This document shows, piece after piece, positions 7,389-29,861 of a DNA stretch of 32,259 bases (position 1 is the stretch's first letter; each line of letters begins with the position of its first letter). The notes under the pieces were generated by a model. The model was not told the origin of the DNA and did no database searches. It saw nothing but the letters and a program-made list of their open reading frames with translations. Origin of the DNA: a virus (lineage: Duplodnaviria > Caudoviricetes); the IMG/VR virus record IMGVR_UViG_3300032218_001494, positions 1 to 32,259 of that record; one strand, 5' to 3'. Made by a program: the position numbers and the translations under genes.

Positions 7389-7679
7389 TCAAGCATTACC
7401 TAACCTCTTAGATTCTTTACGCATATGTGTTCTAATTCGATGACAATTTGAGCAGACTACTTCGCACTTTTTGATCTCATCATCAATCTTCTTCTTCGAA
7501 AGAGTAGGGATGAGTTCAGATACATTTTTGTGCTTAATTCCTCTGACATGGTCAAAATCCATCACATAATAGGGGAAGTTTATTTTACAATCAGCGCAAG
7601 GATGTTTTTCCTTATAGTCCTGCAAATATTTAGCAAGAATAGCCTTTTGTTTTGCAATTGAGAGCTTTTCACTCTTCAT
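7389..7679 (-). CDS. HNH endonuclease
   Basis: CADC...DFDH...CEVVCSNCHRIRT. Confidence 0.85.
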   Translation of the reverse strand: MKSEKLSIAKQKAILAKYLQDYKEKHPCADCKINFPYYVMDFDHVRGIKHKNVSELIPTLSKKKIDDEIKKCEVVCSNCHRIRTHMRKESKRLGNA

Positions 7680-8394: not shown

Positions 8395-8802
8395 CTAGTC
8401 AACTACTTTATTTAAATACTTAATAGCATTATTCATAATATCTATTTTGTCATTAAACTGTCCAAGTGACATATTACAGTCGTTGCACAATAAAGCCCTT
8501 ACCCTATTTGTATCATGACAATGATCTATATGGGTAAATTTTGTGCCTTTAAATTCAATACTACAAATTTTGCATTTATTGTTTTGATCAACAAGCATTT
8601 GATCAAATTGCTCTTGAGTAATTCCATATCTACGTTCTTTGGTACGCTCTCGCATTCTTGCTAAATTCCTTGCAGTATTTTCTGGATTATCTTTTCTCCA
8701 TTTTTTAGCTGCAGCATTTTTGCAATCCTTGCAATCTTTTCTACGTTCATAGAAATCAGAAATATTTTTTTCTATCCCGCACACCTTACATGTTTTTAAC
8801 AT
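8395..8802 (-). CDS. Endonuclease VII-family HNH nuclease with N-terminal zinc finger
   Basis: KTCKVC...CKDC; YGIT..Q...Q.N.CKIC...IDHCH...VRALLC..CN..LG.F.D; likely start 8802. Confidence 0.88.
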   Translation of the reverse strand: MLKTCKVCGIEKNISDFYERRKDCKDCKNAAAKKWRKDNPENTARNLARMRERTKERRYGITQEQFDQMLVDQNNKCKICSIEFKGTKFTHIDHCHDTNRVRALLCNDCNMSLGQFNDKIDIMNNAIKYLNKVVD

Positions 8803-9238
8803 AGGATATAGCCTTTCTAATTGTTTCAATATTGTCTTTAAATCCACCTAGACCAAGGTTACAGTTTCTACAAAGTAGTCCACGAATTTTATCTGTATTG
8901 TGACAATGATCTACTGCTGCTTCCCACCCAATTTGTTTTTTACAAATAGCACATTGATTATTCTGATCAACTAGCATTTGTGCATAGTCTTCACGAGATA
9001 TTCCATATTTTATTTTTCTAGATGTTGCAATAGTTGCAGACTTATACTTTTCTGGATTTTCCTTCTTCCACTTTTTATTTCGCTCCCTAAAACAAGGTAT
9101 GCAATATGCAGCAAGGCCATCCTGTCTGGACTTCCATTTATAATACTCTGATCTTTCTTTTAGTTCCCCGCAAATTGGACAAGTTTTGTGCGTTGCAGTA
9201 TTTGCCATGTAGAACTTGCCTTTTCCAATATTAGCCAT
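8786..9238 (-). CDS. Endonuclease VII-family HNH nuclease with N-terminal zinc finger
   Basis: KTCPIC...CIPC; YGIS...CAIC...VDHCH...IRGLLC..CN.GLG.FKD; TACAAT 6 nt before ATG (leaderless). Confidence 0.88.
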   Translation of the reverse strand: MANIGKGKFYMANTATHKTCPICGELKERSEYYKWKSRQDGLAAYCIPCFRERNKKWKKENPEKYKSATIATSRKIKYGISREDYAQMLVDQNNQCAICKKQIGWEAAVDHCHNTDKIRGLLCRNCNLGLGGFKDNIETIRKAISYVKNM

Positions 9239-9385: not shown

Positions 9386-9401
9386 TGTGATGCGTATCAC
9401 A
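9386..9401. promoter_or_regulatory. CRP/GlxR-type site
   Basis: TGTGA-TGCGTA-TCACA. Confidence 0.7.
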
Positions 9402-9438: not shown

Positions 9439-9460
9439 TGTCAGTCCCCCCATGTATAGT
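9439..9460 (+). promoter_or_regulatory. PafBC/RecA-NDp-type promoter 1
   Basis: TGTCAG-N10-TATAGT. Confidence 0.8.
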
Positions 9461-9509
9461 TAATACTATAAGAAAGTTAATCAAGGTGATTAACAAGAAA
9501 GGAGTCAAA

Positions 9510-9680
9510 ATGACTCAACTTAATGAAACTCTATTTAGCACAATTGTGCATGAATATCACACTGGTGGCGTAAAGTCATCTTATGGATTATCTGCCTATG
9601 ATAGAAAGGCACTACTAAAGTTTTTATTCTCTAGTAAGGCTTGCTATTGCATTAACTGTCTAGATAAGGAGGTTAAGTAA
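9510..9680 (+). CDS. Small early protein with C-terminal CxCxxC
   Basis: AAGGAG RBS before MTQLNE; longer ORF-track start lies inside the promoter. Confidence 0.7.
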   Translation: MTQLNETLFSTIVHEYHTGGVKSSYGLSAYDRKALLKFLFSSKACYCINCLDKEVK

Positions 9681-9820
9681 TGACTAACTCAATCTTTGGT
9701 CAGCGTTTCGCTACCATACATGATTACCCTAAAGGGTTAATGAATCTCTGCCCATGCGGGCAGGTAGTGTTAGCACCCGCTACACACCATGACAGATGTG
9801 AGACAACTCACACTGCATAA
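9680..9820 (+). CDS. 46-aa Cys/His-containing protein
   Basis: AAGGAGG RBS, TAATG coupling; MTNSIFGQRF...LCPCGQ...HHDRC. Confidence 0.65.
   Translation: MTNSIFGQRFATIHDYPKGLMNLCPCGQVVLAPATHHDRCETTHTA
9797..9812. promoter_or_regulatory. CRP/GlxR-type site
   Basis: TGTGA-GACAAC-TCACA. Confidence 0.65.
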
Positions 9821-9840
9821 GTAGCGTGTTACCTTGTAAA

Positions 9841-9862
9841 TGTCAGACCTATCTGATACCTT
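9841..9862 (+). promoter_or_regulatory. PafBC-type promoter 2
   Basis: TGTCAG-N10-TACCTT. Confidence 0.75.
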
Positions 9863-9897
9863 AATCTTATTAAACAACTAGAGAAAGAACAAAGCAA

Positions 9898-10056
9898 ATG
9901 ATGAGTAAATGGGATACTATCCAATTAGATGTAAGCGATATGTATATCGGATTAGAAGAAAACCTAGAGTGGGAAAAGGCTATTGAAAACGGCGATATAT
10001 CGCTTGTTAAATATGATGAAGATGAACTAACACTAGATTGGGAGAGTGGCGAATAG
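9898..10056 (+). CDS. 52-aa acidic protein
   Basis: MMSKWDTIQ...DELTLDWESGE directly after promoter. Confidence 0.65.
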   Translation: MMSKWDTIQLDVSDMYIGLEENLEWEKAIENGDISLVKYDEDELTLDWESGE

Positions 10057-10208
10057 TGGAACTACAACTACTACACATACAGTTTACTAATTGGGGTATG
10101 GACTTTACCTCATATATGGGAGATGTGTATCTACCTTATCGCACCTTTATAGTAACCGCTTTACTAGTAACCGCCCGTATTGTATACAAGAGAAAGAAGA
10201 ATAAGTAA
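10056..10208 (+). CDS. 50-aa membrane-anchored protein
   Basis: GTG start overlapping upstream stop; hydrophobic segment then basic tail. Confidence 0.55.
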   Translation: MELQLLHIQFTNWGMDFTSYMGDVYLPYRTFIVTALLVTARIVYKRKKNK

Positions 10209-10297
10209 TGAAATTAGAGTGCTGTATATGTAGTAAGCCAATATATGGTGAGTCTTTTGATGATGTTGATACTGTTACATGTGAAGAGTGTTGGTAA
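10208..10297 (+). CDS. 29-aa zinc-finger miniprotein
   Basis: TAATG coupling on both sides; CCIC...CEEC. Confidence 0.55.
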   Translation: MKLECCICSKPIYGESFDDVDTVTCEECW

Positions 10298-10416
10298 TGA
10301 ATAGACTACTAACTACTCTAGTGCAATTAGCCCTTATCATTCCCGCCCTATACATGGGGCGCATGGTATGGCACATGATGATCGAAGACTTTAGAGAGTG
10401 GGATAAATCACACTAG
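10297..10416 (+). CDS. 39-aa single-TM protein
   Basis: TAATG coupling; hydrophobic N-half. Confidence 0.55.
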   Translation: MNRLLTTLVQLALIIPALYMGRMVWHMMIEDFREWDKSH

Positions 10417-10471
10417 CCTAACGGTGTGTCGCCTTGACAAAAGGCGATGCGCCCACAGCTTTTGTGGGGGC

Positions 10472-10522
10472 TGTGGATAACTTACGGTAAACTGTGGATA
10501 AATCCTGAAAATCTGTGGACGA
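10472..10522. promoter_or_regulatory. DnaA-box cluster
   Basis: TGTGGATAA at 10472 and 10493, TGTGGACGA at 10514 (21-bp spacing). Confidence 0.7.
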
Positions 10523-10536
10523 CACGCCCGAGATCT

Positions 10537-10552
10537 TGTGAGATTTATCACA
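10537..10552. promoter_or_regulatory. CRP/GlxR-type site
   Basis: TGTGA-GATTTA-TCACA. Confidence 0.7.
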
Positions 10553-10600
10553 TGGCTTGAGCGTCTCACATCTTGGAATTACTGGCTAGTAATTAGTTTA

Positions 10601-10622
10601 TGTCAGTGCGTTCGTGTATAAT
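10601..10622 (+). promoter_or_regulatory. PafBC-type promoter 3
   Basis: TGTCAG-N10-TATAAT. Confidence 0.8.
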
Positions 10623-10657
10623 TCCATTCATAACAACAAACGAAAGAAGGTCTGCCA

Positions 10658-10864
10658 ATGGCTACCAAACTCTACACAATCGAAAGCCTACTTGTAGGAA
10701 AAACCTATCGCTCAAACTCTCGCCACTTTTCAGGCGAAATCGTTTCTGCTGAACCTCGCCCAGAAATTTGGTATGGCGAAAAAACCGAAGCGTTTCTAAT
10801 CGAAGTAAATGCTGGCGGTCTGCGAAATAAATTCGCAACTATTGCGGTGAAGGTTGGTGAATAA
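10658..10864 (+). CDS. Small beta-barrel (SH3-like) hypothetical protein
   Basis: ORF after AACGAAAG leader; G..Y.S....SG.I pattern shared with 12644 ORF. Confidence 0.7.
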   Translation: MATKLYTIESLLVGKTYRSNSRHFSGEIVSAEPRPEIWYGEKTEAFLIEVNAGGLRNKFATIAVKVGE

Positions 10865-10866
10865 TA

Positions 10867-10992
10867 ATGGGATACATAGAAATTTTCCGTATGGACAATG
10901 AAGGTGCTGGCTGGGTAGATTTATCCGAAGCAACACCCGATGAATTATTCAATATCGAATTAGGATTATTAGAGGAAGGTGCGTTCGAATGA
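10867..10992 (+). CDS. 41-aa acidic protein
   Basis: MGYIEIFRMDNEGAGWVDL...; coupled. Confidence 0.6.
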   Translation: MGYIEIFRMDNEGAGWVDLSEATPDELFNIELGLLEEGAFE

Positions 10993-11114
10993 ACTTAGAC
11001 GAATTCAAAAAGCACGTGTTAGCAACACGGCAAGCAAGCAAGGCGGAAGCCTTGTCAGTGCTATCTGCTACAATTACAACTCAACCAAACGAAAGGGAAA
11101 ACCTAAATGGCTAA
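10989..11114 (+). CDS. 41-aa protein overlapping promoter 4
   Basis: ATGA coupling; MNLDEFKKHV... Confidence 0.5.
   Translation: MNLDEFKKHVLATRQASKAEALSVLSATITTQPNERENLNG
11053..11074 (+). promoter_or_regulatory. PafBC-type promoter 4
   Basis: TGTCAG-N10-TACAAT. Confidence 0.8.
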
Positions 11115-11271
11115 AATGAAAGAATACATAGAAATAATCGCAGCGAATTGCGATGAATGCGGCGGTGCTGGATTTGTATTTTTCGGAGACGAAAATAATT
11201 ATGATGTTGAGCCTTGCGATTGTATCGCTGATGTTGCTGATGAACTAACAGTAGATTGGGTAAATGAATAA
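11107..11271 (+). CDS. 54-aa zinc-finger protein
   Basis: CDECGGAG...PCDC; ends DELTVDWVNE. Confidence 0.7.
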   Translation: MAKMKEYIEIIAANCDECGGAGFVFFGDENNYDVEPCDCIADVADELTVDWVNE

Positions 11272-11480
11272 TGTATAAAATAACTGTAACCTATGATGAA
11301 AATCCAGTCCCTGATTTTACTTTTCAATACTCAGATGAATTGCAGGCACATAAAGAATTTGCTAAATATATTGACTGGGGATTTGCTAAAGAATATTCAA
11401 CAGTTAATTTATACACGCCATCGCTAAAATGCTATACAAAAATATTTTATCGTGAAGGACGAAAGGTCGTAACGAAATGA
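11271..11480 (+). CDS. Hypothetical protein
   Basis: Coupled ORF, 69 aa. Confidence 0.7.
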   Translation: MYKITVTYDENPVPDFTFQYSDELQAHKEFAKYIDWGFAKEYSTVNLYTPSLKCYTKIFYREGRKVVTK

Positions 11481-11668
11481 TGACACGCAAGGACTATGTC
11501 GCAACTGCAGAAATTCTAAAGTATATAAGCAACAAAACTCACCCTGCTGTATTTTCTAAAACTGTTCACGATTTCGCAGAAATGTTTGCGAAAGATAATC
11601 CGAGATTTGATGTAACAAGATTTCATGAAGCGAGTGGATATAATGTTCCAAACTTCACTTCGAGATAA
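11477..11668 (+). CDS. Conserved small phage protein (MTRKDY...DNPRFD..RF family)
   Basis: Recognisable motif; ATGA coupling. Confidence 0.75.
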   Translation: MMTRKDYVATAEILKYISNKTHPAVFSKTVHDFAEMFAKDNPRFDVTRFHEASGYNVPNFTSR

Positions 11669-11774
11669 AGTAAAACGAATTCAGGAATTGCGTCGCAGTA
11701 ATGCGGCGCAACCTGTACGCAATAAAAAAAAATACACACGCAAGATCAAACATAAAAATAAAAATGCAGAGTGA
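11643..11774 (+). CDS. 43-aa basic protein, ArfA-like C-terminal motif
   Basis: ELRRSNAAQPVRNKKKYTRKIKHKN. Confidence 0.55.
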   Translation: MFQTSLRDKVKRIQELRRSNAAQPVRNKKKYTRKIKHKNKNAE

Positions 11775-11848
11775 TGCATATCTATGCAGCCCCCAAATAT
11801 GTGGGGGCAAAACTTGCCTTACGTCAAGTTATGAAAACGCCTGGAATT

Positions 11849-11864
11849 TGTGAGATTAATCACA
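11849..11864. promoter_or_regulatory. CRP/GlxR-type site
   Basis: TGTGA-GATTAA-TCACA. Confidence 0.7.
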
Positions 11865-11901
11865 TAAATAAATTAAATAATCATCGGCGTGTTGCAATAA
11901 A

Positions 11902-11923
11902 TGTCGGTGAGTCATGCTATAAT
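11902..11923 (+). promoter_or_regulatory. PafBC-type promoter 5
   Basis: TGTCGG-N10-TATAAT. Confidence 0.8.
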
Positions 11924-11953
11924 TCTCATATTCCAACAACGAAAGGTAAAAAA

Positions 11954-12157
11954 ATGATAGTAGAACATAACTTAAAGTTTGTTACAGAGTTTAAGAAAGG
12001 CCACCCAGTAACTCAACAGGTCATGGCACTTGATGAAAACACCCGTATCTTTATGCTAGAGTCAATGCTAAAAGATTTAATCGCACCACGCCTGCAACCA
12101 ATCATTGATGAGATTAACGCTAACGGTTCCTATGCAATTCTGAAGGTTGCAGAATAA
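11954..12157 (+). CDS. Hypothetical protein
   Basis: Start MIVEHN after CAACGAAAGG. Confidence 0.7.
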   Translation: MIVEHNLKFVTEFKKGHPVTQQVMALDENTRIFMLESMLKDLIAPRLQPIIDEINANGSYAILKVAE

Positions 12158-12433
12158 ATGGGTCACACAACAGCACTAGCCCTTGCAGATGATTTATCAT
12201 TAGAGGCAGGATTAGCCTATCACTTGCAGGCTAATCATTACCCACCCGTTCCCGTTGCTATGGTGCAATCATGCATAGATGCTATTGATGCATACTATGA
12301 TGAGGACTATGGTCGTGAAGTATCTTTACCTGAAGGTATTTCATGGCGTGGTCAAGATAGCGCACCCGCACACGCAATCGTTGATGCACACCACCTAGAT
12401 GCTTGGCTAGTGCAAGAGGACTATGATGAGTAA
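12158..12433 (+). CDS. Hypothetical protein (HL..NHYPPVP family)
   Basis: ORF track, coupled. Confidence 0.75.
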   Translation: MGHTTALALADDLSLEAGLAYHLQANHYPPVPVAMVQSCIDAIDAYYDEDYGREVSLPEGISWRGQDSAPAHAIVDAHHLDAWLVQEDYDE

Positions 12434-12566
12434 TCTTTATTCTATCTTAGCAGAGTGGTATCCAGATGGTAATTACTCAGAGGAAGAGCTATGGGAAGCC
12501 ATAGCAGAGTCCCAGGGAGTAGACCTATACTCAATCATGGACGGCGATCTAACAGAGTACTTGTGA
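12426..12566 (+). CDS. 46-aa acidic protein
   Basis: GAGGA RBS; MSNLYSILAEWYPDG... Confidence 0.6.
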   Translation: MSNLYSILAEWYPDGNYSEEELWEAIAESQGVDLYSIMDGDLTEYL

Positions 12567-12577
12567 TTTTTATCACA
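12562..12577. promoter_or_regulatory. CRP/GlxR-type site
   Basis: TGTGA-TTTTTA-TCACA. Confidence 0.7.
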
Positions 12578-12595
12578 CCAAAATAGATAGAAAAT

Positions 12596-12617
12596 TGTCA
12601 GTAGCCTATGCTACAAT
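12596..12617 (+). promoter_or_regulatory. PafBC-type promoter 6
   Basis: TGTCAG-N10-TACAAT. Confidence 0.8.
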
Positions 12618-12643
12618 AACACCCTAAACGAAAGAAGGAAAAA

Positions 12644-12793
12644 ATGACAACACTAACAATCGGACAGAGTTACACAACTAGTAATAGCGGTGTAACAGGC
12701 ACAATCAAAGCAGTAGATAATCACCCAAGCGGTGTGAGTCGTGTTTTGCTTGATGTAAATGGAAAAGAACGCTGGACAAGCGTTCCTAACTAA
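12644..12793 (+). CDS. 49-aa SH3-like beta protein
   Basis: AAGGA RBS; LTIGQSYTT..SGVTGTI...RVLLDVNGKERWT. Confidence 0.7.
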   Translation: MTTLTIGQSYTTSNSGVTGTIKAVDNHPSGVSRVLLDVNGKERWTSVPN

Positions 12794-12809
12794 TTCCCCT
12801 CACGGGAAA

Positions 12810-12839
12810 TGTCCTGAGCATGACAGTTAAAACTGCTCA
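12810..12839 (+). ncRNA. Candidate H-type pseudoknot, copy 1
   Basis: TGTC/GACA stem 1, TGAGCA/TGCTCA stem 2. Confidence 0.5.
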
Positions 12840-12876
12840 CCCTTCCAACTAAACCCAACGAAAAGGAAACTAACAA

Positions 12877-13299
12877 ATGGCTAGAGGCAAAGCAATCTCA
12901 GTAAAAATCGCAACACCAAAGGTAATTAAGGCACTAGAAACTGCACTAAGAAAGTTAGAGGCAGATTACACTTCACAAGAAGCAAACGAAGCAAAGTATG
13001 AAAAGTTACGCAAGGCTTGGCAAAAAGAGGTTAGCGATTTTGCAGTTGCTAACATCAAGAAGGCTGAGAACTTCCGTACTAGTTATCGTTCTTGGAACAA
13101 CACACTTAACATTGACTACGATTTGACAGTATCCGAAAAGGAAATGCCAAAAGAACCTGAGAAGGACTTTGTAACAATGCACAAGCACTCATACTTAGAG
13201 CAGAAGCAGGAAATCGAAAACGCAATCCGTATTCTGAAAATGACAGATGAGGAAACAGTAAATACTTCAACCTACAATGCGGTTGCTCAGTATCTCTAA
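12877..13299 (+). CDS. Hypothetical coiled-coil protein
   Basis: 140 aa ORF, AAGGA RBS. Confidence 0.8.
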   Translation: MARGKAISVKIATPKVIKALETALRKLEADYTSQEANEAKYEKLRKAWQKEVSDFAVANIKKAENFRTSYRSWNNTLNIDYDLTVSEKEMPKEPEKDFVTMHKHSYLEQKQEIENAIRILKMTDEETVNTSTYNAVAQYL

Positions 13300-13374
13300 T
13301 TAAGTAATTGGGGGGCTAGACAAACTCTAGCCTCCCATGCTATAATTCTTATCCCTACTAACAAAGGAAATAAA

Positions 13375-13614
13375 ATGGCTAACCGATTTCGAGTAGAAAT
13401 CTATGACGAGAATAAATTAAATGATTTAACTATTTATTCTGAGCAAGGTATAGACAAAGAATACTTAAACGAATTGGTGTTTAGTAATCTGCGTAGATTT
13501 CAAGGAAACATTAAAGCATACGTGTTTGATAGCGTAAAGAAAAAGAAAACAACTGCTATGTATCTTCCTATGGAAATTGTTAATAACGTTAAGTCTAAAA
13601 TTAACTTAGCATAA
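13375..13614 (+). CDS. Hypothetical protein
   Basis: TAGACA-N18-TATAAT promoter and AAGGA RBS upstream. Confidence 0.75.
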   Translation: MANRFRVEIYDENKLNDLTIYSEQGIDKEYLNELVFSNLRRFQGNIKAYVFDSVKKKKTTAMYLPMEIVNNVKSKINLA

Positions 13615-13619
13615 GCTTG

Positions 13620-13645
13620 GGGCGGGATCTTTCCGAATCCCGCCC
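13620..13645 (+). terminator. GC-rich hairpin after operon
   Basis: GGGCGGGAT...ATCCCGCCC. Confidence 0.5.
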
Positions 13646-13689
13646 TAACTTCCCATCTCATTATGCGAGATGCCCCCAATACTGAGGGG

Positions 13690-13720
13690 TTATCCACAGG
13701 CTTACGGTACCTGTGGAAAA
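13690..13720. promoter_or_regulatory. Inverted DnaA-box pair
   Basis: TTATCCACA 13690 and TGTGGAAAA 13712. Confidence 0.65.
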
Positions 13721-13732
13721 CGCCCGAGATTT

Positions 13733-13748
13733 TGTGAGATTGATCACA
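13733..13748. promoter_or_regulatory. CRP/GlxR-type site
   Basis: TGTGA-GATTGA-TCACA. Confidence 0.7.
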
Positions 13749-13786
13749 CAACACAATTCGGACAAATGACTCTTTAGATTAGGTAA

Positions 13787-13808
13787 TGTCAGTCCCATAT
13801 GTTATACT
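13787..13808 (+). promoter_or_regulatory. PafBC-type promoter 7
   Basis: TGTCAG-N10-TATACT. Confidence 0.8.
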
Positions 13809-13839
13809 CAATTCATCAACCAATCGAAAGGAAATAAAA

Positions 13840-14844
13840 ATGGCTCATAATCTAGAAATGGAAAACGGCGAAATCGCATTCGCTCTTCGTGGTGCTCCTG
13901 CTTGGCATAACCTTGCCAATCGTATCTTCACACAAGATGAAGAAGTTACAACACAAACAATGCTCGAAGAGGCAAAGTTGGCTAAGTGGAATGTTCGCTT
14001 ATCTCCAATCACTGAACACGTACCAGAATCTTGGAATGATGTTTCTAATGCATCTCTCGTTATTCGTGACAACCCATTCAACGGTGGAACAGATATCCTT
14101 GCAACTGTTGGCAAGCGTTACAAGCCTGTACAGAATGAAGAACTATTTGCATTCGCTGATGCAATTCACGATGCCAATGCTGATTGCCGTTGGGAATCTG
14201 CTGGCTCATTAAAGCAGGGTAAAGTTGTGTTTGGAACTGTAGATATTCCACGCACAATGATATTAGACCCACAAGGCGCTAATGATGCTACAAAACTTTA
14301 TCTAATTGTTTGGACAAGCCATGATGGGTCTGTTGCTGTTCAAGCAGCCGTCACACCTGTTCGTGTTGTTTGCCAAAACACATTAAACTTAGCGATGAAA
14401 AGCGCAAAGCAATCTTTCAAGATTCGCCACACGCAATCTGTTGAGGGTCGCATTCAAGTTGCTCGTGAGACTCTTGGTCTTGCTCTTGGATATTTCGATG
14501 AATTCGAAAAAGAAGCGCAAGCACTTTATTCTCAATCTATTACAGATGCAGAATTCTCAAAGTTGATTCGCACAATTTATCCTAAGCCTGAAAAGGATAC
14601 TAAGGGTGCCCTAACTAAATGGGAAAATAAAGTTGTGTTGCTTGATGATTTATATCATAACTCACCAACCAATGCTAATATCAAAGGCACAAAGTGGGGT
14701 GCCTTTAATGCGCTAACTGAACGTTTAGATTACTACCGCACATCTCGTGGTAATTCTGAATCACTAATGGCTGGCGCATCTGGATTTGACCCTGTGCTAA
14801 CTGCAGAAAAAAACAAAATCAAAAAGTTAATTTTTGCTTTCTAA
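13840..14844 (+). CDS. DUF932 / TIGR03299 phage-plasmid protein
   Basis: MAH.L...PAWH.L; VG.RY.PVQN.E.F; ESAGSL..G; SHDGS; TPVRVVCQNTL; RHT; GT.WGAFNA.TE. Confidence 0.9.
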   Translation: MAHNLEMENGEIAFALRGAPAWHNLANRIFTQDEEVTTQTMLEEAKLAKWNVRLSPITEHVPESWNDVSNASLVIRDNPFNGGTDILATVGKRYKPVQNEELFAFADAIHDANADCRWESAGSLKQGKVVFGTVDIPRTMILDPQGANDATKLYLIVWTSHDGSVAVQAAVTPVRVVCQNTLNLAMKSAKQSFKIRHTQSVEGRIQVARETLGLALGYFDEFEKEAQALYSQSITDAEFSKLIRTIYPKPEKDTKGALTKWENKVVLLDDLYHNSPTNANIKGTKWGAFNALTERLDYYRTSRGNSESLMAGASGFDPVLTAEKNKIKKLIFAF

Positions 14845-14851
14845 AAAAATA

Positions 14852-14880
14852 AAATCCTGAGCACGATTTAAAACTGCTCA
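14852..14880 (+). ncRNA. Candidate H-type pseudoknot, copy 2
   Basis: AAATC/GATTT stem 1, TGAGCA/TGCTCA stem 2. Confidence 0.5.
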
Positions 14881-14989
14881 ACCCTTCGGGGCGTGGAAGC
14901 TTGACAGATCGTGGAAAATGCCCCCAAGCTTAAAAGCACAATTTTGATCATACGAGAGGCAAATAAATTTGCCTGAATCTATAGACATT

Positions 14990-15011
14990 TGTCAGTGGTA
15001 CCTGCTACAAT
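14990..15011 (+). promoter_or_regulatory. PafBC-type promoter 8
   Basis: TGTCAG-N10-TACAAT. Confidence 0.8.
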
Positions 15012-15042
15012 ACTACCTATCAACCAAACGAAAGAGGAAAAA

Positions 15043-15507
15043 ATGGAAGAAACATCAATGAACAATCTGCCACTGTCAGATGCAGAAAAGTACAATCCAA
15101 ATCAATTAGTTACATATAAGATTATCCACGGATACTCTGACCCTGAATATGCAACTACCAAGGTTGCATCTCTTGAATGGGATTTGCACAATGCACGTCA
15201 AACTCAAAAAACAAACGGCTCCTTGACTAACAAAATTAGTTTAGTTAAAGATATTATTACTGAAGCATATGCTGATTCAGATGACCAAGAAACACTTCGT
15301 TCAATTGCTGAAGCACTTGATATTGAATTAACTAGAACAGTTGAATGGTCTGCAACTATTGAAGTTAGCGGAACTATTGAATTAGATTTGCTTGCTGATT
15401 CAGATACAGATATTGAATCAGAAATCTACGACAATCTTTATGTTGAATCACAACACGGTAACATCCAAGTAGATGACACCGAAGTTACAAATGTAAGGGA
15501 GAACTAA
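15043..15507 (+). CDS. Hypothetical acidic protein
   Basis: Start MEETSM after GAGGA. Confidence 0.8.
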   Translation: MEETSMNNLPLSDAEKYNPNQLVTYKIIHGYSDPEYATTKVASLEWDLHNARQTQKTNGSLTNKISLVKDIITEAYADSDDQETLRSIAEALDIELTRTVEWSATIEVSGTIELDLLADSDTDIESEIYDNLYVESQHGNIQVDDTEVTNVREN

Positions 15508-15719
15508 TGTACTTTGAACTCACCGCTCCCGATAGGTTGTCCATGGAGATGGCCTATTGGGATGCACAAATCACAGGCCTGGACCCTGAGGCTATGACAC
15601 CATTGACATTCAACATTGGAACTGGTAGCATTGAGAAAGTAAGTAGGTTGCGAGATAAGTTTAAATTAACTGAATCTTATGTTGCAGACCATGAGCCTAC
15701 AGGATACCAAAGGAGCTAA
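15507..15719 (+). CDS. Hypothetical protein
   Basis: TAATG coupling, GGAG RBS. Confidence 0.75.
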   Translation: MYFELTAPDRLSMEMAYWDAQITGLDPEAMTPLTFNIGTGSIEKVSRLRDKFKLTESYVADHEPTGYQRS

Positions 15720-15720
15720 G

Positions 15721-15876
15721 GTGGATTACCAAGACGGTTTTGAAGACGGGGTTAAATTCTCTCGTGAAGTAATCATTGCTAACATTCGTAAATGGGCAGA
15801 AGACCATGATGAGGGTGGGACAGTTGATTGGGTCGCAGACCGTATTGAGTTTGGAACACTAGACAATGACCTATGA
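15721..15876 (+). CDS. Hypothetical protein
   Basis: AAGGAG then GTG; Y.DGFEDG motif. Confidence 0.7.
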   Translation: MDYQDGFEDGVKFSREVIIANIRKWAEDHDEGGTVDWVADRIEFGTLDNDL

Positions 15877-16078
15877 TGATCTAAATAAGTGGACCCCATG
15901 CGATAAGTGTGGAGAATCGGCCCAAGCTATGTATTTAATTAAACTAGTAGATGGTGAGTTAGCATTCTGTGGCCACCATTATAATAAGTTCAAAGAGGCC
16001 CTTGACAAAGTCTCATATGAAATTATACAATTGAATAAGGAAGAAGAAATACCACAACTAATAGAAATGGCGGAATAA
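15866..16078 (+). CDS. Zinc-binding protein (CD.CG...L.FCGHH, actinobacterial-type)
   Basis: CDKC and FCGHH motifs. Confidence 0.75.
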   Translation: MTYDDLNKWTPCDKCGESAQAMYLIKLVDGELAFCGHHYNKFKEALDKVSYEIIQLNKEEEIPQLIEMAE

Positions 16079-16079
16079 A

Positions 16080-16487
16080 ATGGGAGACAGAGCAAACTTT
16101 GTATTTGTAGACGAGAATGCAAATGCATTAGTACTATATGGACACTGGGCAGGGCACCAAATGCTTAGTAATTTGGCAGACGCAGTAATTAAGGCACGTC
16201 CACGTTGGAGTGATACATCATATGCAACACGTATTGCTATCAGTCAACTAGTGGGGGACCAATGGAATATGGAAACAGGTTGGGGATTAACTATTAATTC
16301 AATTAGTGACAACGAGCACAAGATTCCTGTTATTGATTGGAAGCAGCAAACGTTTAGTCTTCATGAAGAAGATAGTTTTGCTAACACTGATAATAAAGTA
16401 CGTGGCATGAAAAACGAAGCAATTTTTACACAGGACCTTTCGTCCTTCTGTGAGAAATATGCTTTGAATGAATTGCTTACAGTATAA
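16080..16487 (+). CDS. Hypothetical phage protein (MGDR...LY.HW.G family)
   Basis: 135 aa ORF with recognisable N-terminal motif. Confidence 0.8.
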   Translation: MGDRANFVFVDENANALVLYGHWAGHQMLSNLADAVIKARPRWSDTSYATRIAISQLVGDQWNMETGWGLTINSISDNEHKIPVIDWKQQTFSLHEEDSFANTDNKVRGMKNEAIFTQDLSSFCEKYALNELLTV

Positions 16488-16497
16488 CTAAATAAGT

Positions 16498-16613
16498 AAA
16501 GGTGCGGCTATGAGGCATTCGCCAAGTCGTTAAATAATGCAGGTTTTTACTTTCGTTGGTTATCCTAGCAGCCTTAATAAGAGATCCTCCAGGTAAGATC
16601 TGGGGGATTTTTT
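16498..16613 (+). ncRNA. Candidate structured antisense sRNA (3'UTR-derived or independent)
   Basis: Stems AAGGT/GCCTT, GCGGCT/AGTCGT, TGCAGG/CCT(A)GCA; loop CTTTCGTTGGTT; terminator 16584-16613; no ORF. Confidence 0.6.
16584..16613 (+). terminator. Intrinsic terminator
   Basis: ATCCTCCAGG...TCTGGGGGAT followed by T run. Confidence 0.7.
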
Positions 16614-16742
16614 ATATGCCCCCAAAGACATGAGGGTATCAAAATTTCCTTACGGTGTCAATATAAATTCGCCTGAAATTTGGTGATCTAGACCACAAAG
16701 CTGGGGAATGTGGTGTGTATCACACGATATACCCTATACAAA

Positions 16743-16764
16743 TGTCAGTGGTCCATTGTATAAT
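16743..16764 (+). promoter_or_regulatory. PafBC-type promoter 9 (degenerate CRP-like sites at 16682 and 16709)
   Basis: TGTCAG-N10-TATAAT; TGTGG-N6-TCACA upstream. Confidence 0.8.
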
Positions 16765-16791
16765 TGGAACATATCAACGAAAGGATATAAT

Positions 16792-17538
16792 ATGCCAAAT
16801 TGGGTGTATAACGGATTAACTATAGAAGGTAATCCTGAGCAAGTTAAATCTTTAATTAAACAGATGAATAAGCCATTTGTTCAATCTATTGAACCATTAG
16901 GTGATTTATCATTTGAGATTAAACAACGTAAGTATGTTAATCCTATCTTTGCTTTTCATAATATATATTCTTATCTAGACCATGGTGTTACTGAGAAGGA
17001 ATATCATTCTCAACCGCCGACCAAAAATCCTGACCAAACATTTGCTGATTATATAAAGTTTGAATCTAACGATTGGTATAACTTTAATAATCGTGAGTGG
17101 GGCACCAAATGGGATGTGGCTGTAGCCGAGGATGACAAGTATCCTAATACTAATATGGAGGAAGCCGAGAACGGTGAAAACTATGTAGTTCATTACAACT
17201 TTGAAACTGCTTGGAGCCGTCCTCTACCTGCTATTCAAAAACTGTCTGCACAATACCCAACATTACTCTTTACTTTATCATATGAAGAAGAGACAGGCTG
17301 GGGTGGGGAAATGGAATTCCTTCGTGGAGAAGTTATCTCAGAATCAGAATATGACAATATGTGTCGTGATTGTGATGCAACTGACCAAATGGAATACTGC
17401 GAAGAAGAAGACTGTGGCCAAATCTGTGGCAACTGCCACTGGCTTGGCGAGGCAGACCTAGAGGCTGTGGCTAAATGTCAGACCCATAGTATATACTTAG
17501 CAACAAAAGTTCCTGAATATAGAAAGGCGGAAGTATAA
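16792..17538 (+). CDS. DUF1281/YubB-like ferredoxin-fold protein with C-terminal Cys cluster
   Basis: MPNW..N.L.I.G; WY.....WGTKWD; F.TAWS.P; L.Y.EE. Confidence 0.8.
   Translation: MPNWVYNGLTIEGNPEQVKSLIKQMNKPFVQSIEPLGDLSFEIKQRKYVNPIFAFHNIYSYLDHGVTEKEYHSQPPTKNPDQTFADYIKFESNDWYNFNNREWGTKWDVAVAEDDKYPNTNMEEAENGENYVVHYNFETAWSRPLPAIQKLSAQYPTLLFTLSYEEETGWGGEMEFLRGEVISESEYDNMCRDCDATDQMEYCEEEDCGQICGNCHWLGEADLEAVAKCQTHSIYLATKVPEYRKAEV
17476..17497 (+). promoter_or_regulatory. PafBC-type promoter 10 (inside gene 3' end)
   Basis: TGTCAG-N10-TATACT. Confidence 0.7.
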
Positions 17539-17756
17539 TGGCAAGTTTCTTAGAAGATGTAAATCAAATGGTAATTGACGCTGTCTACCAAGATATAGCA
17601 GAACAATTACTAGAGGACTGGATTAATAATAATCTAGATGAGGGCCAGTACTATGCAGATAAACAATTTGCAGAAATGTCAGGAGATAAATTCATACAAG
17701 ATGAGTTTAATAAGTTCTATGATATCAAAGAAGGAGATGAGGATTACTTATGCTAG
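17538..17756 (+). CDS. Acidic hypothetical protein
   Basis: Coupled ORF. Confidence 0.75.
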   Translation: MASFLEDVNQMVIDAVYQDIAEQLLEDWINNNLDEGQYYADKQFAEMSGDKFIQDEFNKFYDIKEGDEDYLC

Positions 17757-17923
17757 GTTATACTGAATCCGATCTAAACAAGATGATTAATGCTGTACAT
17801 GACGCAAAGCTTTTTTATCTTCGGACCCCGTCCGATTTAATGGATAAAACAGAACTAAGGAATGATTTAGAAATGGCTGTTAGTTTTATGCAAGGCCTAT
17901 GGGCCGAGGGCTATTTTGACTAA
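17750..17923 (+). CDS. 57-aa hypothetical protein
   Basis: GAGGA RBS; MLGYT..DL...GLWAEGYFD. Confidence 0.65.
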   Translation: MLGYTESDLNKMINAVHDAKLFYLRTPSDLMDKTELRNDLEMAVSFMQGLWAEGYFD

Positions 17924-18092
17924 GTCATCTAAGTTCATAGAGTATATGAAGATACATCTAATTAGTCTTAACCAGGACTTAGATAAACATAGACCTGAAG
18001 ACACATTACTAGTTGAATATATAGAAGGACAAATTGTGGCAACCGAACATTTATTGTCAGTGGCTACTGATATAATGAACTCAAATGAATAA
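17916..18092 (+). CDS. 58-aa hypothetical protein (TTG start uncertain)
   Basis: GAGGG RBS; ends EHLLSVATDIMNSNE. Confidence 0.55.
   Translation: MTKSSKFIEYMKIHLISLNQDLDKHRPEDTLLVEYIEGQIVATEHLLSVATDIMNSNE
18055..18076 (+). promoter_or_regulatory. PafBC-type promoter 11
   Basis: TGTCAG-N10-TATAAT. Confidence 0.8.
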
Positions 18093-18345
18093 ATATGACC
18101 AAAGGCGTAAAGCCTATAATCTTAAAATGCTAGAAGAAAATGGTCAATTAGGTATATGGTCATTGGATAGATTGGGTAGGATTGCTTTCTGTGCCTTTTG
18201 TTCCACCGCCATAAAAGCGGGAGATATGAAAAAGCATAAAAAGCTTTATCATAAGAAGTGTCATGCACATCTGTATATGACATTTAAGTATGATAAGTTT
18301 AATATAGAAAATCCAGTATTAGCAGGAAATGTCAGTAGCGACTGA
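18085..18345 (+). CDS. Basic Cys/His protein flanked by duplicated promoter
   Basis: FCAFC...HKKLYHKKCH. Confidence 0.6.
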   Translation: MNKYDQRRKAYNLKMLEENGQLGIWSLDRLGRIAFCAFCSTAIKAGDMKKHKKLYHKKCHAHLYMTFKYDKFNIENPVLAGNVSSD

Positions 18346-18351
18346 TATAAT
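18330..18351 (+). promoter_or_regulatory. PafBC-type promoter 12
   Basis: TGTCAG-N10-TATAAT. Confidence 0.8.
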
Positions 18352-18656: not shown

Positions 18657-18880
18657 CATACGAGCCAAGCTTGGAAATCCTGGAAATGGAATACTCTTGC
18701 TCACCTGGAGGAATCGATCTATTTGAAGTCTATGATAAAACAGATATACCTTTATCTATCCCAATATATGAGACTGAATCTTTGACGGATGCTGTGCTCT
18801 ACTGTTATAATTTAGGGAAAGACTTTACTGTCAAGACATTAGCGGAATGGAATGAAAGAGAGTTAGCATATGAAGCCTGA
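18653..18880 (+). CDS. Hypothetical protein
   Basis: ATGA coupling. Confidence 0.7.
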   Translation: MTYEPSLEILEMEYSCSPGGIDLFEVYDKTDIPLSIPIYETESLTDAVLYCYNLGKDFTVKTLAEWNERELAYEA

Positions 18881-19343: not shown

Positions 19344-19372
19344 TTTACAGAATCGTAAATAGTTGATATAAT
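19344..19372 (+). promoter_or_regulatory. Sigma-A-type promoter
   Basis: TTTACA-N17-TATAAT with extended TG. Confidence 0.75.
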
Positions 19373-19549: not shown

Positions 19550-19634
19550 ATAAATAGATCGGAGGGGTTGGCAGAGTAATTTGCCAATCTCTCCCCTATT
19601 TGATAGAATTACAACTTAACAGAAAGAGGCGGAA

Positions 19635-19928: not shown

Positions 19929-19960
19929 ATATCCACAAGTTATCCACAGCTTGTGGATAT
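19929..19960. promoter_or_regulatory. DnaA-box cluster
   Basis: ATATCCACA 19929, TTATCCACA 19940, TGTGGATAT 19952. Confidence 0.7.
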
Positions 19961-24211: not shown

Positions 24212-25276
24212 TTACTTCTTTAGTGCAACCTTAGCCTTTGGATTAGCCTTGTTCCACTTTGTAGCTAGAGCATTAAACTCTGCCTTATATGCTGCTGCTG
24301 CAAGATCTGCAGAAGCTTTTGCCTGTGCAAGTTCAACTGCGGCCACAGCCTTTGAATCTGCAAGGGCTTTGTCTGCTGCTAACTTGTCTGCTGCACGTCC
24401 AGCTTTTTCTGTTGCTAGATCTGCTGCTGCTTTAGCTGCTGCATCTGCAAGAGCCTTGGCTGCTGCTGAAGCATCCGCTAGGCGTCCAGCTTTTTCTGTT
24501 GCTAGAGCAGTTGCAAGGTCAGAAACTGTTACAAACTTTGTAACAGACTTAACTGCTACTGGAAGTCCGTCAACATCTGTTGCCGTAATTGCAAAATTTA
24601 CTGCTGCATTCCCCGCTACTGCAGGATATGTAACTGTAACCTTTGAAATACCAGTTGTAGCATCTGATGCTGCTGATGCAACTGAAACTGTTGCGCCAAT
24701 TACTGTAACTACTGGTGTAGTTGCTGTTGGAATATTACCAAATACGTCTGTAACCTTTGTTGAATACTCAATAACGCTTGAAGTATTTGTAGAATCTGCA
24801 ACTGTTGTAGAAAGGTTATATGCAGGACCTGCGGTACCCTTTACATAATAAACATATGCATTACCAGCATTAATAATTGTTACTGTACCTGTAGCAGTTG
24901 ATTTTGTGTAAACATAAAATTCTGCTGTTGTTCCTGTTCCAGTGTTAACTGTATATGAGGTTAATCCTGAAGCAGATGTAACTGGGGAAGTTGATACCCA
25001 TAGTGCTGGAACAATAAATGCTCCTGATGTTGATATAGTAACTGCTGTTCCTGTATCAATACCTGTTAGGGCAAACTTTACTGCGTCTGCAGCGTCTACC
25101 TTATTATCAGATGGAACAGTTACAACTGCCGCACCTGCGAATGTATTTGCATCTGTATCTGCAACTGTGTTAACAGATACTGAAATAGTAGGTACTGCAT
25201 ATGCAGAAACCGTACTAAGAACTGTACCAGCCAAGGCTGCAGCGATGACTAGACTTACTTTCTTAAATGAGTTCAT
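24212..25276 (-). CDS. Secreted surface protein, Thr/Val-rich beta domains plus Ala-rich coiled coil
   Basis: Signal peptide ending AYA; AAGGAG RBS; repeated DLA...ATEKAGR. Confidence 0.8.
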   Translation of the reverse strand: MNSFKKVSLVIAAALAGTVLSTVSAYAVPTISVSVNTVADTDANTFAGAAVVTVPSDNKVDAADAVKFALTGIDTGTAVTISTSGAFIVPALWVSTSPVTSASGLTSYTVNTGTGTTAEFYVYTKSTATGTVTIINAGNAYVYYVKGTAGPAYNLSTTVADSTNTSSVIEYSTKVTDVFGNIPTATTPVVTVIGATVSVASAASDATTGISKVTVTYPAVAGNAAVNFAITATDVDGLPVAVKSVTKFVTVSDLATALATEKAGRLADASAAAKALADAAAKAAADLATEKAGRAADKLAADKALADSKAVAAVELAQAKASADLAAAAYKAEFNALATKWNKANPKAKVALKK

Positions 25277-25562: not shown

Positions 25563-25855
25563 TCTGAAAGCTCCTTTAGCATAATATGTTTGGGCTTTGC
25601 ACCAACTATACTATGAACTGTTTGACCACTTTTAAATAATACCATAGTTGGTATCGAAGAAACCCCATATTCAATAGTTTTTTCAGGATTCTCATCAACA
25701 TTTAACTTACCGACGAGTAGCCCTGTCTCATTTGATATCTCATCTAGAATAGGGGAAACTTTTTTACATGGCCCACACCATTCTGCCCAAAAATCAACTA
25801 AGACTAGTTGATTAGAATTGATAACTTCTTCAAAGGATTTATCTGTTACTATCAT
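25553..25855 (-). CDS. trxA: Thioredoxin
   Basis: LVDFWAEWCGPCK, SIPT, GAKPK. Confidence 0.95.
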   Translation of the reverse strand: MIVTDKSFEEVINSNQLVLVDFWAEWCGPCKKVSPILDEISNETGLLVGKLNVDENPEKTIEYGVSSIPTMVLFKSGQTVHSIVGAKPKHIMLKELSEWL

Positions 25856-26322
25856 AGTTTTTCAACATGGGTTGGCCAGTAGTAATTACATGATTCGCAA
25901 CAAGTATATCCCATTTCCTTATAATCTGCAAAATCACTATAGAAGTAATAGTGTTCAGGATTCTTTTCAAACAATCTTCCCTTATGAGTATAATGCAATT
26001 GATCGTTATTTAACCACCATGGTGCATCAGACTCTAATCCTAAGAAATTTTCTTGATATATCTCATCAAACTGGATGTGCGTGGTGTTTTTATAACCACG
26101 TAGGATAATCTCCTTAATGATGGCTTCGTTGTAGAGGAATAGAAAATCTTCGTGTCCCCTCCACATTTTGACTGCTGGGTGATTGCCCCAAGCTCCAGAC
26201 TCATACATCCCTGAAAGAGATTTAAGAATCTGTAAGTTTTCTACACTCTGTTTAATTAATCTTTTTCTATCAAGATTCTTTGCAGTATATTGAAAGTCCG
26301 CCTCTGGTAAGAATGTTTGCAT
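25852..26322 (-). CDS. Pyrimidine-dimer DNA glycosylase-like (MSMEG_6728 family)
   Basis: MQTFLP...LD.KRL.KQ.VE..Q...HPAV.MW.G...RGY...PWW...H...L; TTGACT-N17-TAGAAT-N7-ATG leaderless. Confidence 0.85.
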   Translation of the reverse strand: MQTFLPEADFQYTAKNLDRKRLIKQSVENLQILKSLSGMYESGAWGNHPAVKMWRGHEDFLFLYNEAIIKEIILRGYKNTTHIQFDEIYQENFLGLESDAPWWLNNDQLHYTHKGRLFEKNPEHYYFYSDFADYKEMGYTCCESCNYYWPTHVEKL

Positions 26323-26360
26323 GATACCTATTCTACTAAATAGATCAAGGCTAGTCAATA

Positions 26361-29259: not shown

Positions 29260-29560
29260 TTGGTTGACCTTCCAGTTCGCATCTTACTCCATAGGATTCT
29301 ATTAACTTCTTTACTTTTGTAACACAATCAATTACCATCTCTTTTTTGAGACCGTCAAATTGTATAAAGTTATCTTCGTATAATCTTATAGCTAAAAATT
29401 CTGGATATTGAACAATATCCATCTGCAAACTAGGAAAATCTTTTTTTAAAGCCCTGACTCCCAAGGCCATTTCTTTATTATAAAATACTGGCTTATTTGG
29501 TTCGCCATTCCATTGGTTAATCCCATATTTAAAATGATCTTTATCTTTATCAATGAACAT
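29243..29560 (-). CDS. Hypothetical protein
   Basis: Coupled ORF. Confidence 0.75.
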   Translation of the reverse strand: MFIDKDKDHFKYGINQWNGEPNKPVFYNKEMALGVRALKKDFPSLQMDIVQYPEFLAIRLYEDNFIQFDGLKKEMVIDCVTKVKKLIESYGVRCELEGQPSERIL

Positions 29561-29861
29561 TTTTTTGCTTTAACCTCTTCCATACATCTGGCTTTTTATG
29601 TAGATTTCTGATTTTATCTATTAGGCCAGCATTTAAATAAATGCCTCCCCAAACTCCATATTCATTATTTTCAACACCTGTATCGTAGCAAATTTTCATT
29701 ACTGGACAAGAAAGGCACATTTCATCAATATTCTTTGATGTATTAATATCTATCTCATATTTGTCAAAAAATAAATTGGTATCCATTCCTGCACAAATTG
29801 CAAGGTGCTGCCAATCAAAATCTTTTTCATCTACTCCGAGATCATTTAAAATATTTGACAT
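29550..29861 (-). CDS. whiB: WhiB-family Fe-S transcription regulator
   Basis: W...A.C...D..LFF...CLSCPV...C...GVWGG. Confidence 0.92.
   Translation of the reverse strand: MSNILNDLGVDEKDFDWQHLAICAGMDTNLFFDKYEIDINTSKNIDEMCLSCPVMKICYDTGVENNEYGVWGGIYLNAGLIDKIRNLHKKPDVWKRLKQKNVH

Follow-up and report, generated by a model that had tools for sequence, protein, structure and literature searches.

The window analysed here is a 32,259-nucleotide (nt) stretch of DNA from an uncultured lake phage (Duplodnaviria; Caudoviricetes; IMG/VR record IMGVR_UViG_3300032218_001494, positions 1 to 32,259). Between positions 9439 and 18351 it carries twelve sites of the form TGTCRG-N10-TANNNT, the layout of promoters activated by the actinobacterial regulator PafBC. 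Read from the sequence, the arrangement places a familiar class of promoter in a setting new for it, with the addition of a helically phased Crp-type site. The explanation we favour, with moderate confidence, is that the sites are PafBC-type promoters at which host PafBC and host Crp would boost a predicted early block of phage genes when single-stranded DNA (ssDNA) appears. The coordinates of the main features are presented in Table 1.

All twelve sites lie on the + strand, exactly where a sequence-only reading of the window had placed them, and none is found elsewhere in the 32 kb; in 100 shuffled controls the mean was 0.51 sites and the largest number was 4, so that 0/100 reached 12. The flanks contain TTGACA-type promoters (e.g. 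4530+, 8402-, 22502-, 27515-, 30143-), also as that reading had described. When the spacer is scanned from 6 to 15 nt, the 12 sites appear at 10 nt and 0–3 at each other length. Relaxing the first T, A or C of the box adds no site in the window, and the GTC triplet is invariant (12/12). The consensus matches, as had been proposed, the published PafBC motif tGTCgg(N10)tA(N3)T, whose box occupies -28 to -23; according to PMC8635444 the GTC triplet is read by R46 and R50 of PafB, and PafC contacts domain 4 of sigma-A. PafBC is described as being activated by ssDNA of at least 6 nt and as joining polymerase which is already bound to the promoter (PMC11804915).

Concerning their position relative to genes, eight sites are intergenic and four (11053, 17476, 18055 and 18330) overlap the 3' end of the upstream open reading frame (ORF). 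An ATG is found 8–50 nt downstream of all 12 sites, each of which the earlier reading had described as heading a small-gene cassette. That reading is to be qualified: the sites at 18055 and 18330 are near-duplicates, and the block also holds canonical promoters. The near-duplicates (82% identity over 39 nt) flank ORF 18085-18345, the neighbours of which are directly adjacent in 40/60 relatives; this ORF is likely to be an insertion that duplicated the promoter in a manner resembling target duplication. Because the two sites are near-duplicates with an unmatched ORF between them, only 11 independent positions are counted.

The array is also found in relatives, for which we used 80 IMG/VR loci (contigs up to 120 kb) whose DUF932 protein is 91–95% identical to that of the window; since these loci are closely related, their counts reflect inheritance and not independent origins. 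A motif scan of relatives, suggested together with the original reading, finds the array in 80/80 loci, with 7–18 sites in each. Pooled, they contain 1135 coding-strand sites at spacer 10, compared with 0–55 at the other spacers from 7 to 13, and 5 on the other strand. In five near-complete relatives (112–120 kb) a single strand carries 14–19 sites, most of them grouped in one cluster; a reversed control gives 2–3. The promoter class is kept gene by gene: the box precedes the orthologues of the ORFs at 10658 (75/75), 11954 (59/59), 13840 (80/80) and 17538 (52/52). The 10-nt spacing is fixed in 80/80 loci, and the sites comprise 345 distinct 22-mers. Chance and mere repeats are ruled out as an origin of the boxes, as the 345 22-mers are unique, the spacers vary widely and the positions are fixed. 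Hairpins overlapping the promoter spacer (57/626 contexts, 1/12 in the window) are too rare to explain the motif. A separate hairpin-like element of 24–26 nt, without a match in Rfam, is present once or twice in 44/80 relatives; its second copy in the window lies at 14856-14879.

The original reading had missed a second element. Upstream of seven of the twelve sites are TGTGA-N6-TCACA palindromes (six perfect, one with one mismatch), which emerged from a repeat search. Perfect palindromes of this CRP consensus number 6 in the window against 0.03 expected, and they are close to the mycobacterial Crp consensus quoted in PMC2844151. With +1 assumed to lie 7 nt after the -10 for every centre position, the centres span -54.5 to -84.5 in 10-bp steps; the probability of such phasing by chance for seven sites is p ~1e-4. 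Across the 80 loci, the 134 kb that precede sites hold 484 perfect boxes, compared with 20 in the remaining 1.17 Mb, and about two thirds of the relatives' contexts (479/715) have an upstream CRP-type box. All perfect boxes of the five complete relatives (33/33) fall inside the block, a single block holding 5–8. Composites of a CRP box and a PafBC-type site are estimated to occur in at least ~1600 stretches of IMG/VR and at least ~200 of a far larger genome collection. Among the matches listed, 227 of 267 unique viral composites have gaps of 18, 27–29, 37–39 or 47–48, a minor viral class is centred near -69.5/-70.5, and the 126 bacterial composites show a flat gap distribution. By blastn, 227/238 of the listed viral composite loci match the phage family of the window; among these matches the double-activator layout is common in that family and sporadic in bacteria. 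Three Nocardia loci also have a CRP box and a PafBC-type site, the latter 6 nt before an ORF which resembles dnaX in its first residues; the gaps there vary from 30 to 43 nt, with no fixed phase.

The presence of a WhiB and an Lsr2-like gene points to an actinobacterial host, whiB being a predictor at the phylum level only (PMC12143481). The PafC helix-turn-helix (HTH) family is found in 237/251 Actinomycetes genomes, seven of which are unpublished and were used in this tally only, and in 15/15 small genomes (1.3–1.7 Mb), with one match each and with adjacent pafB and pafC ORFs. PafB of the small genome G241 shares 97% identity with a Ca. Planktophila record, and its alignment to PDB 7P5X keeps E42, A43, R46, R50 and K52. 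R46 is present in 90/94 PafB-like loci; R50 is part of the PafB search pattern. In the 17 of 20 small genomes in which recA was found, the box lies within 450 nt upstream in 17/17, at spacer 10 only and in strict form in 16 (a range of 260 nt misses it in 9/17). The recA site of G148 and the window site at 14990 are identical at 19/22 bases. We also examined 20 chosen host stretches covering 40 sites. Downstream of these sites are carD, dnaE, genes for a LysM protein, an exonuclease, DUF6504 and a DNA methylase, and clustered unknown genes. Twelve of the 40 lie exactly 6 nt before the start codon, a distance which fits leaderless transcripts and the assumed +1 seven bases after the -10.

In three small host genomes carD is preceded by a PafBC-type site. 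The small lake actinobacteria G148, G189 and G241 have clusters of PafBC-type sites over ~50 kb. The genes behind them are unknown ones, mostly leaderless, and those for TPR proteins, a trypsin-like protease and a type II DNA methylase; the clusters are possibly a damage-inducible island regulon. PADLOC, applied to 24 proteins (19 from hosts, 5 from phages), has a single strong match, to a type II methylase, besides a protease-domain match, a weak TPR match and none among the phage proteins, which does not establish the host island genes as defence genes.

Concerning Crp, each of the five candidate hosts (G241, G225, G126, G148 and G189) encodes one, with a recognition helix equal to that of the mycobacterial Crp structure and an intact-looking nucleotide pocket. 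The search for a cyclase covered class III adenylate cyclase (PF00211), which is found in 0/5 of them. Mycobacterial Crp is described as able to bind without cyclic AMP (cAMP; PMC2844151). Individual phage proteins do not point to a particular host: phage RecA has no match in ten small genomes at E 1e-40, and otherwise matched only phage contigs binned in unrelated metagenome-assembled genomes; the GroES matches do not discriminate, and the 354-aa protein at 24212-25276 has no match in 40 genomes.

The activator itself appears to be absent from the phage. Pfam on the 84 ORFs of the window, together with local PafB and PafC profiles, confirms that it encodes no WYL domain. The complete relative G001 has 167 ORFs of 60 aa or longer; Pfam on 145 of these (set aside were antisense shadows, RNR, DUF932, one 79-aa ORF and a 3759-aa ORF) finds neither a WYL, sigma or Crp domain nor an integrase, repressor or partition gene; what this phage does encode is a WhiB and one HTH_17 protein. 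Local profiles built from 88 PafB, 56 PafC and 5 Crp segments, run on 24,114 six-frame segments of the window, G001 and the 80 loci, reach best E values of only 2.8 (PafB), 2.0 (PafC) and 6.7 (Crp). A WYL family search gave 0/5 for the complete relatives; as no candidates were scored in it, it is weak by itself, and the point is carried by the G001 scan and the local profiles. The proposal that the activator is host-encoded is strengthened by the pafBC of candidate hosts with its DNA-reading arginine, by the box before recA and by a complete relative without a PafBC-like gene.

Five promoters of the block are of the canonical -35/-10 type; two of them (13317, 16002) lie within 9439..18351 and three (18782, 19344, 19581) just beyond. 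In the course of events we propose, sigma-A polymerase would first fire these ordinary promoters (lsr2 and four others) without an activator, and the box-type promoters would run at a basal level from their strong -10 and TGn elements. Host PafBC activated by ssDNA would then dock on the -26 box and raise output rather than gate it. Host Crp would co-activate in a class I-type manner from whole helix turns upstream at seven sites, probably with little cAMP input, given that no class III cyclase was found in the five candidate hosts. The ssDNA would probably arise either during infection itself, through host resection of the linear ends, nicking or nucleases, or through UV damage. The promoter sequences favour a basal level raised by PafBC over promoters silent without it. 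Of the wider PafBC interpretation, the motif, the actinobacterial host and the host pafBC are retained; the statement that the phage entrusts its early programme to PafBC, or that it is active in stressed cells only, was too strong in view of the five canonical promoters and the near-consensus -10 elements.

Several observations weigh against this explanation. Concerning the core elements, the match to TATAAT averages 5.17/6 at phage sites (345 sites) and 3.62 at host sites (53 sites, some of them chance matches), and TGn extended -10 elements are found at 56% and 21%, respectively. A -35 of at least 5/6 accompanies 17% of 513 sites of the relatives compared with 1.4% of the background; in the window 1/12 sites has 5/6 and 3/12 have 4/6. 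Near-consensus -10 elements with frequent TGn make basal firing plausible and, together with the 17% of sites with a -35, mean that PafBC may add little to the phage promoters. On the host side, the motif shows only a slight excess genome-wide in the five candidate hosts (72 vs 53 in the control), and CRP boxes with up to one mismatch are not enriched there (63 vs 73). The phage thioredoxin does not single out acI as a host: its nearest counterpart is that of small genome G063 (64%), with the Planktophila-like ones at 52–56%. As for the CRP boxes, 5/12 window sites lack one, 32/267 of the listed viral composites deviate from the phase by half a helical turn (gaps 33–34), and the phage centres are ~3 bp off the class I series of E. 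coli (-61.5, -71.5, -81.5, -91.5) and also differ from the mycobacterial whiB1 site at -58.5 (PMC2844151). One might speculate that the 44-degree change of the upstream DNA path in the PafBC complex described in PMC8635444 could explain this shift. No strict-motif array is found in 19 cultured-phage records (18 actinophages and one unrelated phage), which have 0–5 scattered matches. Finally, a novel phage activator among the unannotated small ORFs remains a candidate.

The strength of the core elements is also the starting point of the alternative which survives best, although we regard it as unlikely: the sites would be activator-independent extended -10 sigma-A promoters, and the boxes would mainly soak up PafBC and Crp, as a decoy blunting the damage response, or add little. 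The strong -10 and TGn elements and the sites with a -35 agree with this, as does the count of 5–8 perfect CRP boxes per phage block against one in total across the five 1.4-Mb host genomes. A type II DNA methylase gene located in a variable host region is preceded by a PafBC-type site, and a WYL activator of Moraxellaceae is reported to induce restriction and CRISPR defences (PMC12392091). However, a decoy would need neither the fixed 10-nt link to a -10 nor the helical phasing of the CRP boxes; PafBC is described as joining only polymerase already at such a promoter (PMC11804915), and the promoter class is conserved gene by gene.

The opposite possibility, that the second-tier genes are silent without active PafBC and lysis takes place only in DNA-damaged (e.g. 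UV-stressed) cells, seems improbable to us. It draws on the description of sigma-A holoenzyme alone as blind to PafBC promoters (PMC8635444), on the lack of a -35 at most phage sites and on the pyrimidine-dimer glycosylase gene at 25852-26358. Silent promoters are made less likely by the near-consensus -10 and by the TGn elements; in 66/80 relatives a -35 of 5/6 or better is part of the DUF932 promoter, and the ORFs scanned in G001 include no integrase, repressor or partition gene.

To a similarly low degree we consider an activator of the phage's own, without a WYL domain, which would be made from the first-tier promoters and bridge the -26 box to sigma-A in the manner of MotA/AsiA of T4, the likeness to PafBC sites being ancestral or mimicry. 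Sigma appropriation in T4 (PMC8635444) provides the precedent, the layout is two-tiered, most small ORFs belong to no family, and G001 offers its WhiB and HTH_17 proteins. Nevertheless, the local profiles detect no PafB-like HTH, the phage profile shares the unconstrained -22 to -19 of the host (T, G/C, G/C, C), one site is nearly that of a host recA, and host PafBC would bind any such site anyway. That the promoters are read by another host factor, be it a second WYL paralogue or WhiA/WhiB in the vicinity of GACAC words (as in the WhiA motif), is very improbable: GACAC is enriched around -60 in relatives (70/714 contexts) and the phage encodes WhiB, but within ~110 nt upstream the word occurs at only 1/12 window sites (10521), and PafC-HTH matches number just one per genome in the small candidate hosts.

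Table 1. Promoter sites, upstream elements and genes of the window (relatives are the 80 related loci or those with the orthologous position).
Feature	Position	Strand	Context
Site 1 (-26 box, N10, -10)	9439..9460	+	before ORF 9510
Site 2	9841..9862	+	motif scan
Site 3	10601..10622	+	before ORF 10658; box in 75/75 orthologous positions
Site 4	11053..11074	+	in 3' end of ORF 10989-11114, before ORF 11107; in 9/55 relatives only
Site 5, sole TGTCGG	11902..11923	+	before ORF 11954; 59/59 relatives
Site 6	12596..12617	+	before ORF 12644
Site 7	13787..13808	+	before DUF932 gene; box in 80/80 relatives, 66 also with -35 of at least 5/6
Site 8, hybrid with 5/6 -35 at 14982	14990..15011	+	19/22 bases as in recA site of host genome G148
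Site 9	16743..16764	+	before DUF1281_C (Api92-like) gene 16792-17538
Site 10	17476..17497	+	in 3' end of ORF 16792-17538, before ORF 17538; 52/52 relatives
Site 11	18055..18076	+	near-duplicate of site 12
Site 12	18330..18351	+	before ORF 18372
Perfect CRP palindrome	9386..9401	.	centre -73.5, site 1
Perfect CRP palindrome	9797..9812	.	centre -64.5, site 2
Perfect CRP palindrome	10537..10552	.	centre -84.5, site 3
Perfect CRP palindrome	11849..11864	.	centre -73.5, site 5
Perfect CRP palindrome	12562..12577	.	centre -54.5, site 6
Perfect CRP palindrome	13733..13748	.	centre -74.5, site 7
CRP palindrome, one mismatch	16709..16724	.	centre -54.5, site 9
Canonical -35/-10 promoter, 11/12 matches, without -26 box	13317..13346	+	before ORF 13375
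Canonical -35/-10 promoter	16002..16031	+	before ORF 16080; -35 only in 48/71 relatives, -26 box in 0
Canonical -35/-10 promoter	18782..18811	+	before ORF 18870
Canonical -35/-10 promoter of lsr2-like gene	19344..19372	+	-35 only in 52/52 relatives
Canonical promoter	19581..19609	+	before ORF 19635, last gene of block; -35 and box both in 21/36 relatives
Two DnaA-box-like 9-mers	10472-10480, 10493-10501	-	DnaA-box consensus
Facing pair of DnaA-box-like 9-mers	13690-13698, 13712-13720	+, -	DnaA-box consensus
Hairpin-like element, 26 nt	12813..12838	+	where 77/79 relatives have a PafBC-type site before ORF 12877
86-aa Cys/His-rich ORF	18085..18345	+	no tblastn match in 80 relatives
DUF932 gene, 334 aa	13840..14844	+	~50% identical to terminal-repeat gene of Streptomyces cluster BE phages
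DUF1281_C (Api92-like) gene	16792-17538	+	Pfam
Lsr2-like DNA-bridging protein gene, 47 aa	19406..19549	+	phrog_6269, E 4e-8
Pyrimidine-dimer DNA glycosylase gene	25852-26358		PF03013; consistent with UV exposure
WhiB-family gene	29550..29861	-	PF02467, E 1e-12; outside block

The G+C content of the window varies from 31 to 43% per kb. Its recognisable genes (Pfam on 84 ORFs; the Lsr2-like one by a phrog_6269 match) encode WhiB, an Lsr2-like protein, DUF932, RNR, GroES, thioredoxin and a pyrimidine-dimer glycosylase. Phage Jay2Jay shares with the window the succession SLT–glycosyltransferase–RNR beside a DUF932/lsr2 small-gene block, and in cluster BE phages lsr2 lies within direct terminal repeats of 10–12 kb (PMC8612146). 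Based on this synteny, the DUF932/lsr2 content and the location of lsr2 in the BE terminal repeats, we infer that the block is an early, terminal-repeat-like takeover module, its timing being deduced from synteny only. Immediately ahead of the block are two tandem endonuclease VII-type genes on the - strand (8395-9238), and an HNH gene is found at 7389-7679; BE phages too have an HNH gene at the edge of the module. Searches of the window with Rfam and for the parS consensus found no matches, and Atlas look-ups of ORFs 16080 and 19635 led only to unnamed clusters. Three lake metatranscriptomes, runs picked with this stretch, contain 5–6% of words, and contigs of relatives span the block; this contig-level result was not used as support. 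The only isolated Nanopelagicales phages described in PMC10202952 are of 39 kb and unlike the phage family of the window.

DnaA-box-like 9-mers, which sit in the same gaps as the CRP-type boxes, number 5 in the window against 0.9 expected (2/100 shuffles reach 5). Besides those of Table 1, a further pair is seen at 19929-19960. In relatives such 9-mers cluster 100–140 nt upstream of predicted starts.

Looking at the cultured phages, the same 19 records also lack an array of CRP boxes. Isolated strict sites are seen in the M. smegmatis phages Marvin (36843, 6 nt before gene 62) and Bongo (46567, intergenic, before gene 71), and in Dropshot (22785 and 28294). Five cluster BE phages have 85 pattern-picked -35/-10 promoters in their terminal regions, and 20 of these carry GTC exactly at the PafB position (Jay2Jay 5/17, Coruscant 6/17, Mildred21 6/14, Tomas 2/21 and Karimac 1/16). 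At other offsets GTC occurs 0–4 times, except for another maximum (18) directly upstream of the -10, and the 23 promoters of Moab and Racecar have none at the PafB position. A weak -35 is more frequent in the GTC-bearing BE promoters (16/20) than in the others (33/65; Fisher p 0.02), these promoters being related to each other; the full box is rare, with one in Mildred21. According to a first motif search reported in PMC9380542, conservation of the M. smegmatis motif does not seem to extend to S. venezuelae. The GTC pattern in the BE phages may be considered a lead and not support for a role of PafBC.

The phage sites resemble the mycobacterial PafBC (RecA-NDp) promoters in having TGTCRG at -28 to -23, 10 nt and a sigma-A -10 (PMC8635444, PMC11804915), and they share this layout with the recA sites of the candidate hosts; a -35 is lacking at most, but not all, of the phage sites. 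They differ from the RecA-NDp promoters in that they lie in a phage without detected lysogeny genes and precede unknown small genes, not repair genes; their -10 and TGn elements are much stronger, most contexts add a CRP-type box, and their activation is only predicted. Compared with class I CRP promoters, a perfect TGTGA-N6-TCACA upstream of the core, on one helix face and with a 10-bp period, is common to both (PMC2844151). The phage series (-54.5, -64.5, -74.5, -84.5, for an assumed start) is, however, a different one and is coupled to a -26 box, not to a -35. As in the MotA/AsiA-dependent middle promoters of T4, an activator box replaces the -35 and would redirect the housekeeping sigma factor (PMC8635444). 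T4 encodes both factors, whereas the phage of the window has a host-type box and no phage factor was found. The terminal-repeat module of cluster BE (Stanwilliamsviridae: Jay2Jay, Coruscant, Mildred21) likewise has DUF932 and lsr2 among small co-oriented genes with their own promoters; those promoters are of the -35/-10 type, without CRP boxes and with the GTC core only. The takeover regions of SPO1 and T5 are comparable to the block. LexA-repressed phage promoters are known. In SOS-coupled phages, as in lambda through CI cleavage (PMC12392091), phage expression is also tied to a host ssDNA signal; these phages are temperate and respond by loss of a repressor, whereas here a positive, LexA-independent control of about a dozen promoters is proposed. 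In the literature searched, with subscription papers outside it, we found no report of a phage using a WYL regulator or PafBC-type promoters for its own genes. PMC12848934 cites a 2025 statement that PafBC regulates phage resistance in Mycobacterium, and the direction of that effect bears on the explanation favoured here.

In a broader and more tentative reading, widespread lytic actinophages of lakes would run a takeover module on composite Crp and PafBC promoters, so that the host ssDNA alarm, which serves the host for repair and island genes, would be tripped by infection and become a phage switch, with a weaker form in the Streptomyces BE phages. WYL regulators are known as regulators of host repair and defence; if the favoured explanation is true, a lytic phage turns the LexA-independent ssDNA sensor of its host into a positive switch. 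The hundreds of natural variants of the Crp–PafBC composite would then allow the study of a class I activator on a sigma-adapted complex and of the ~3 bp phase shift, and infection of abundant lake actinobacteria would be tied to DNA stress, e.g. from sunlight.

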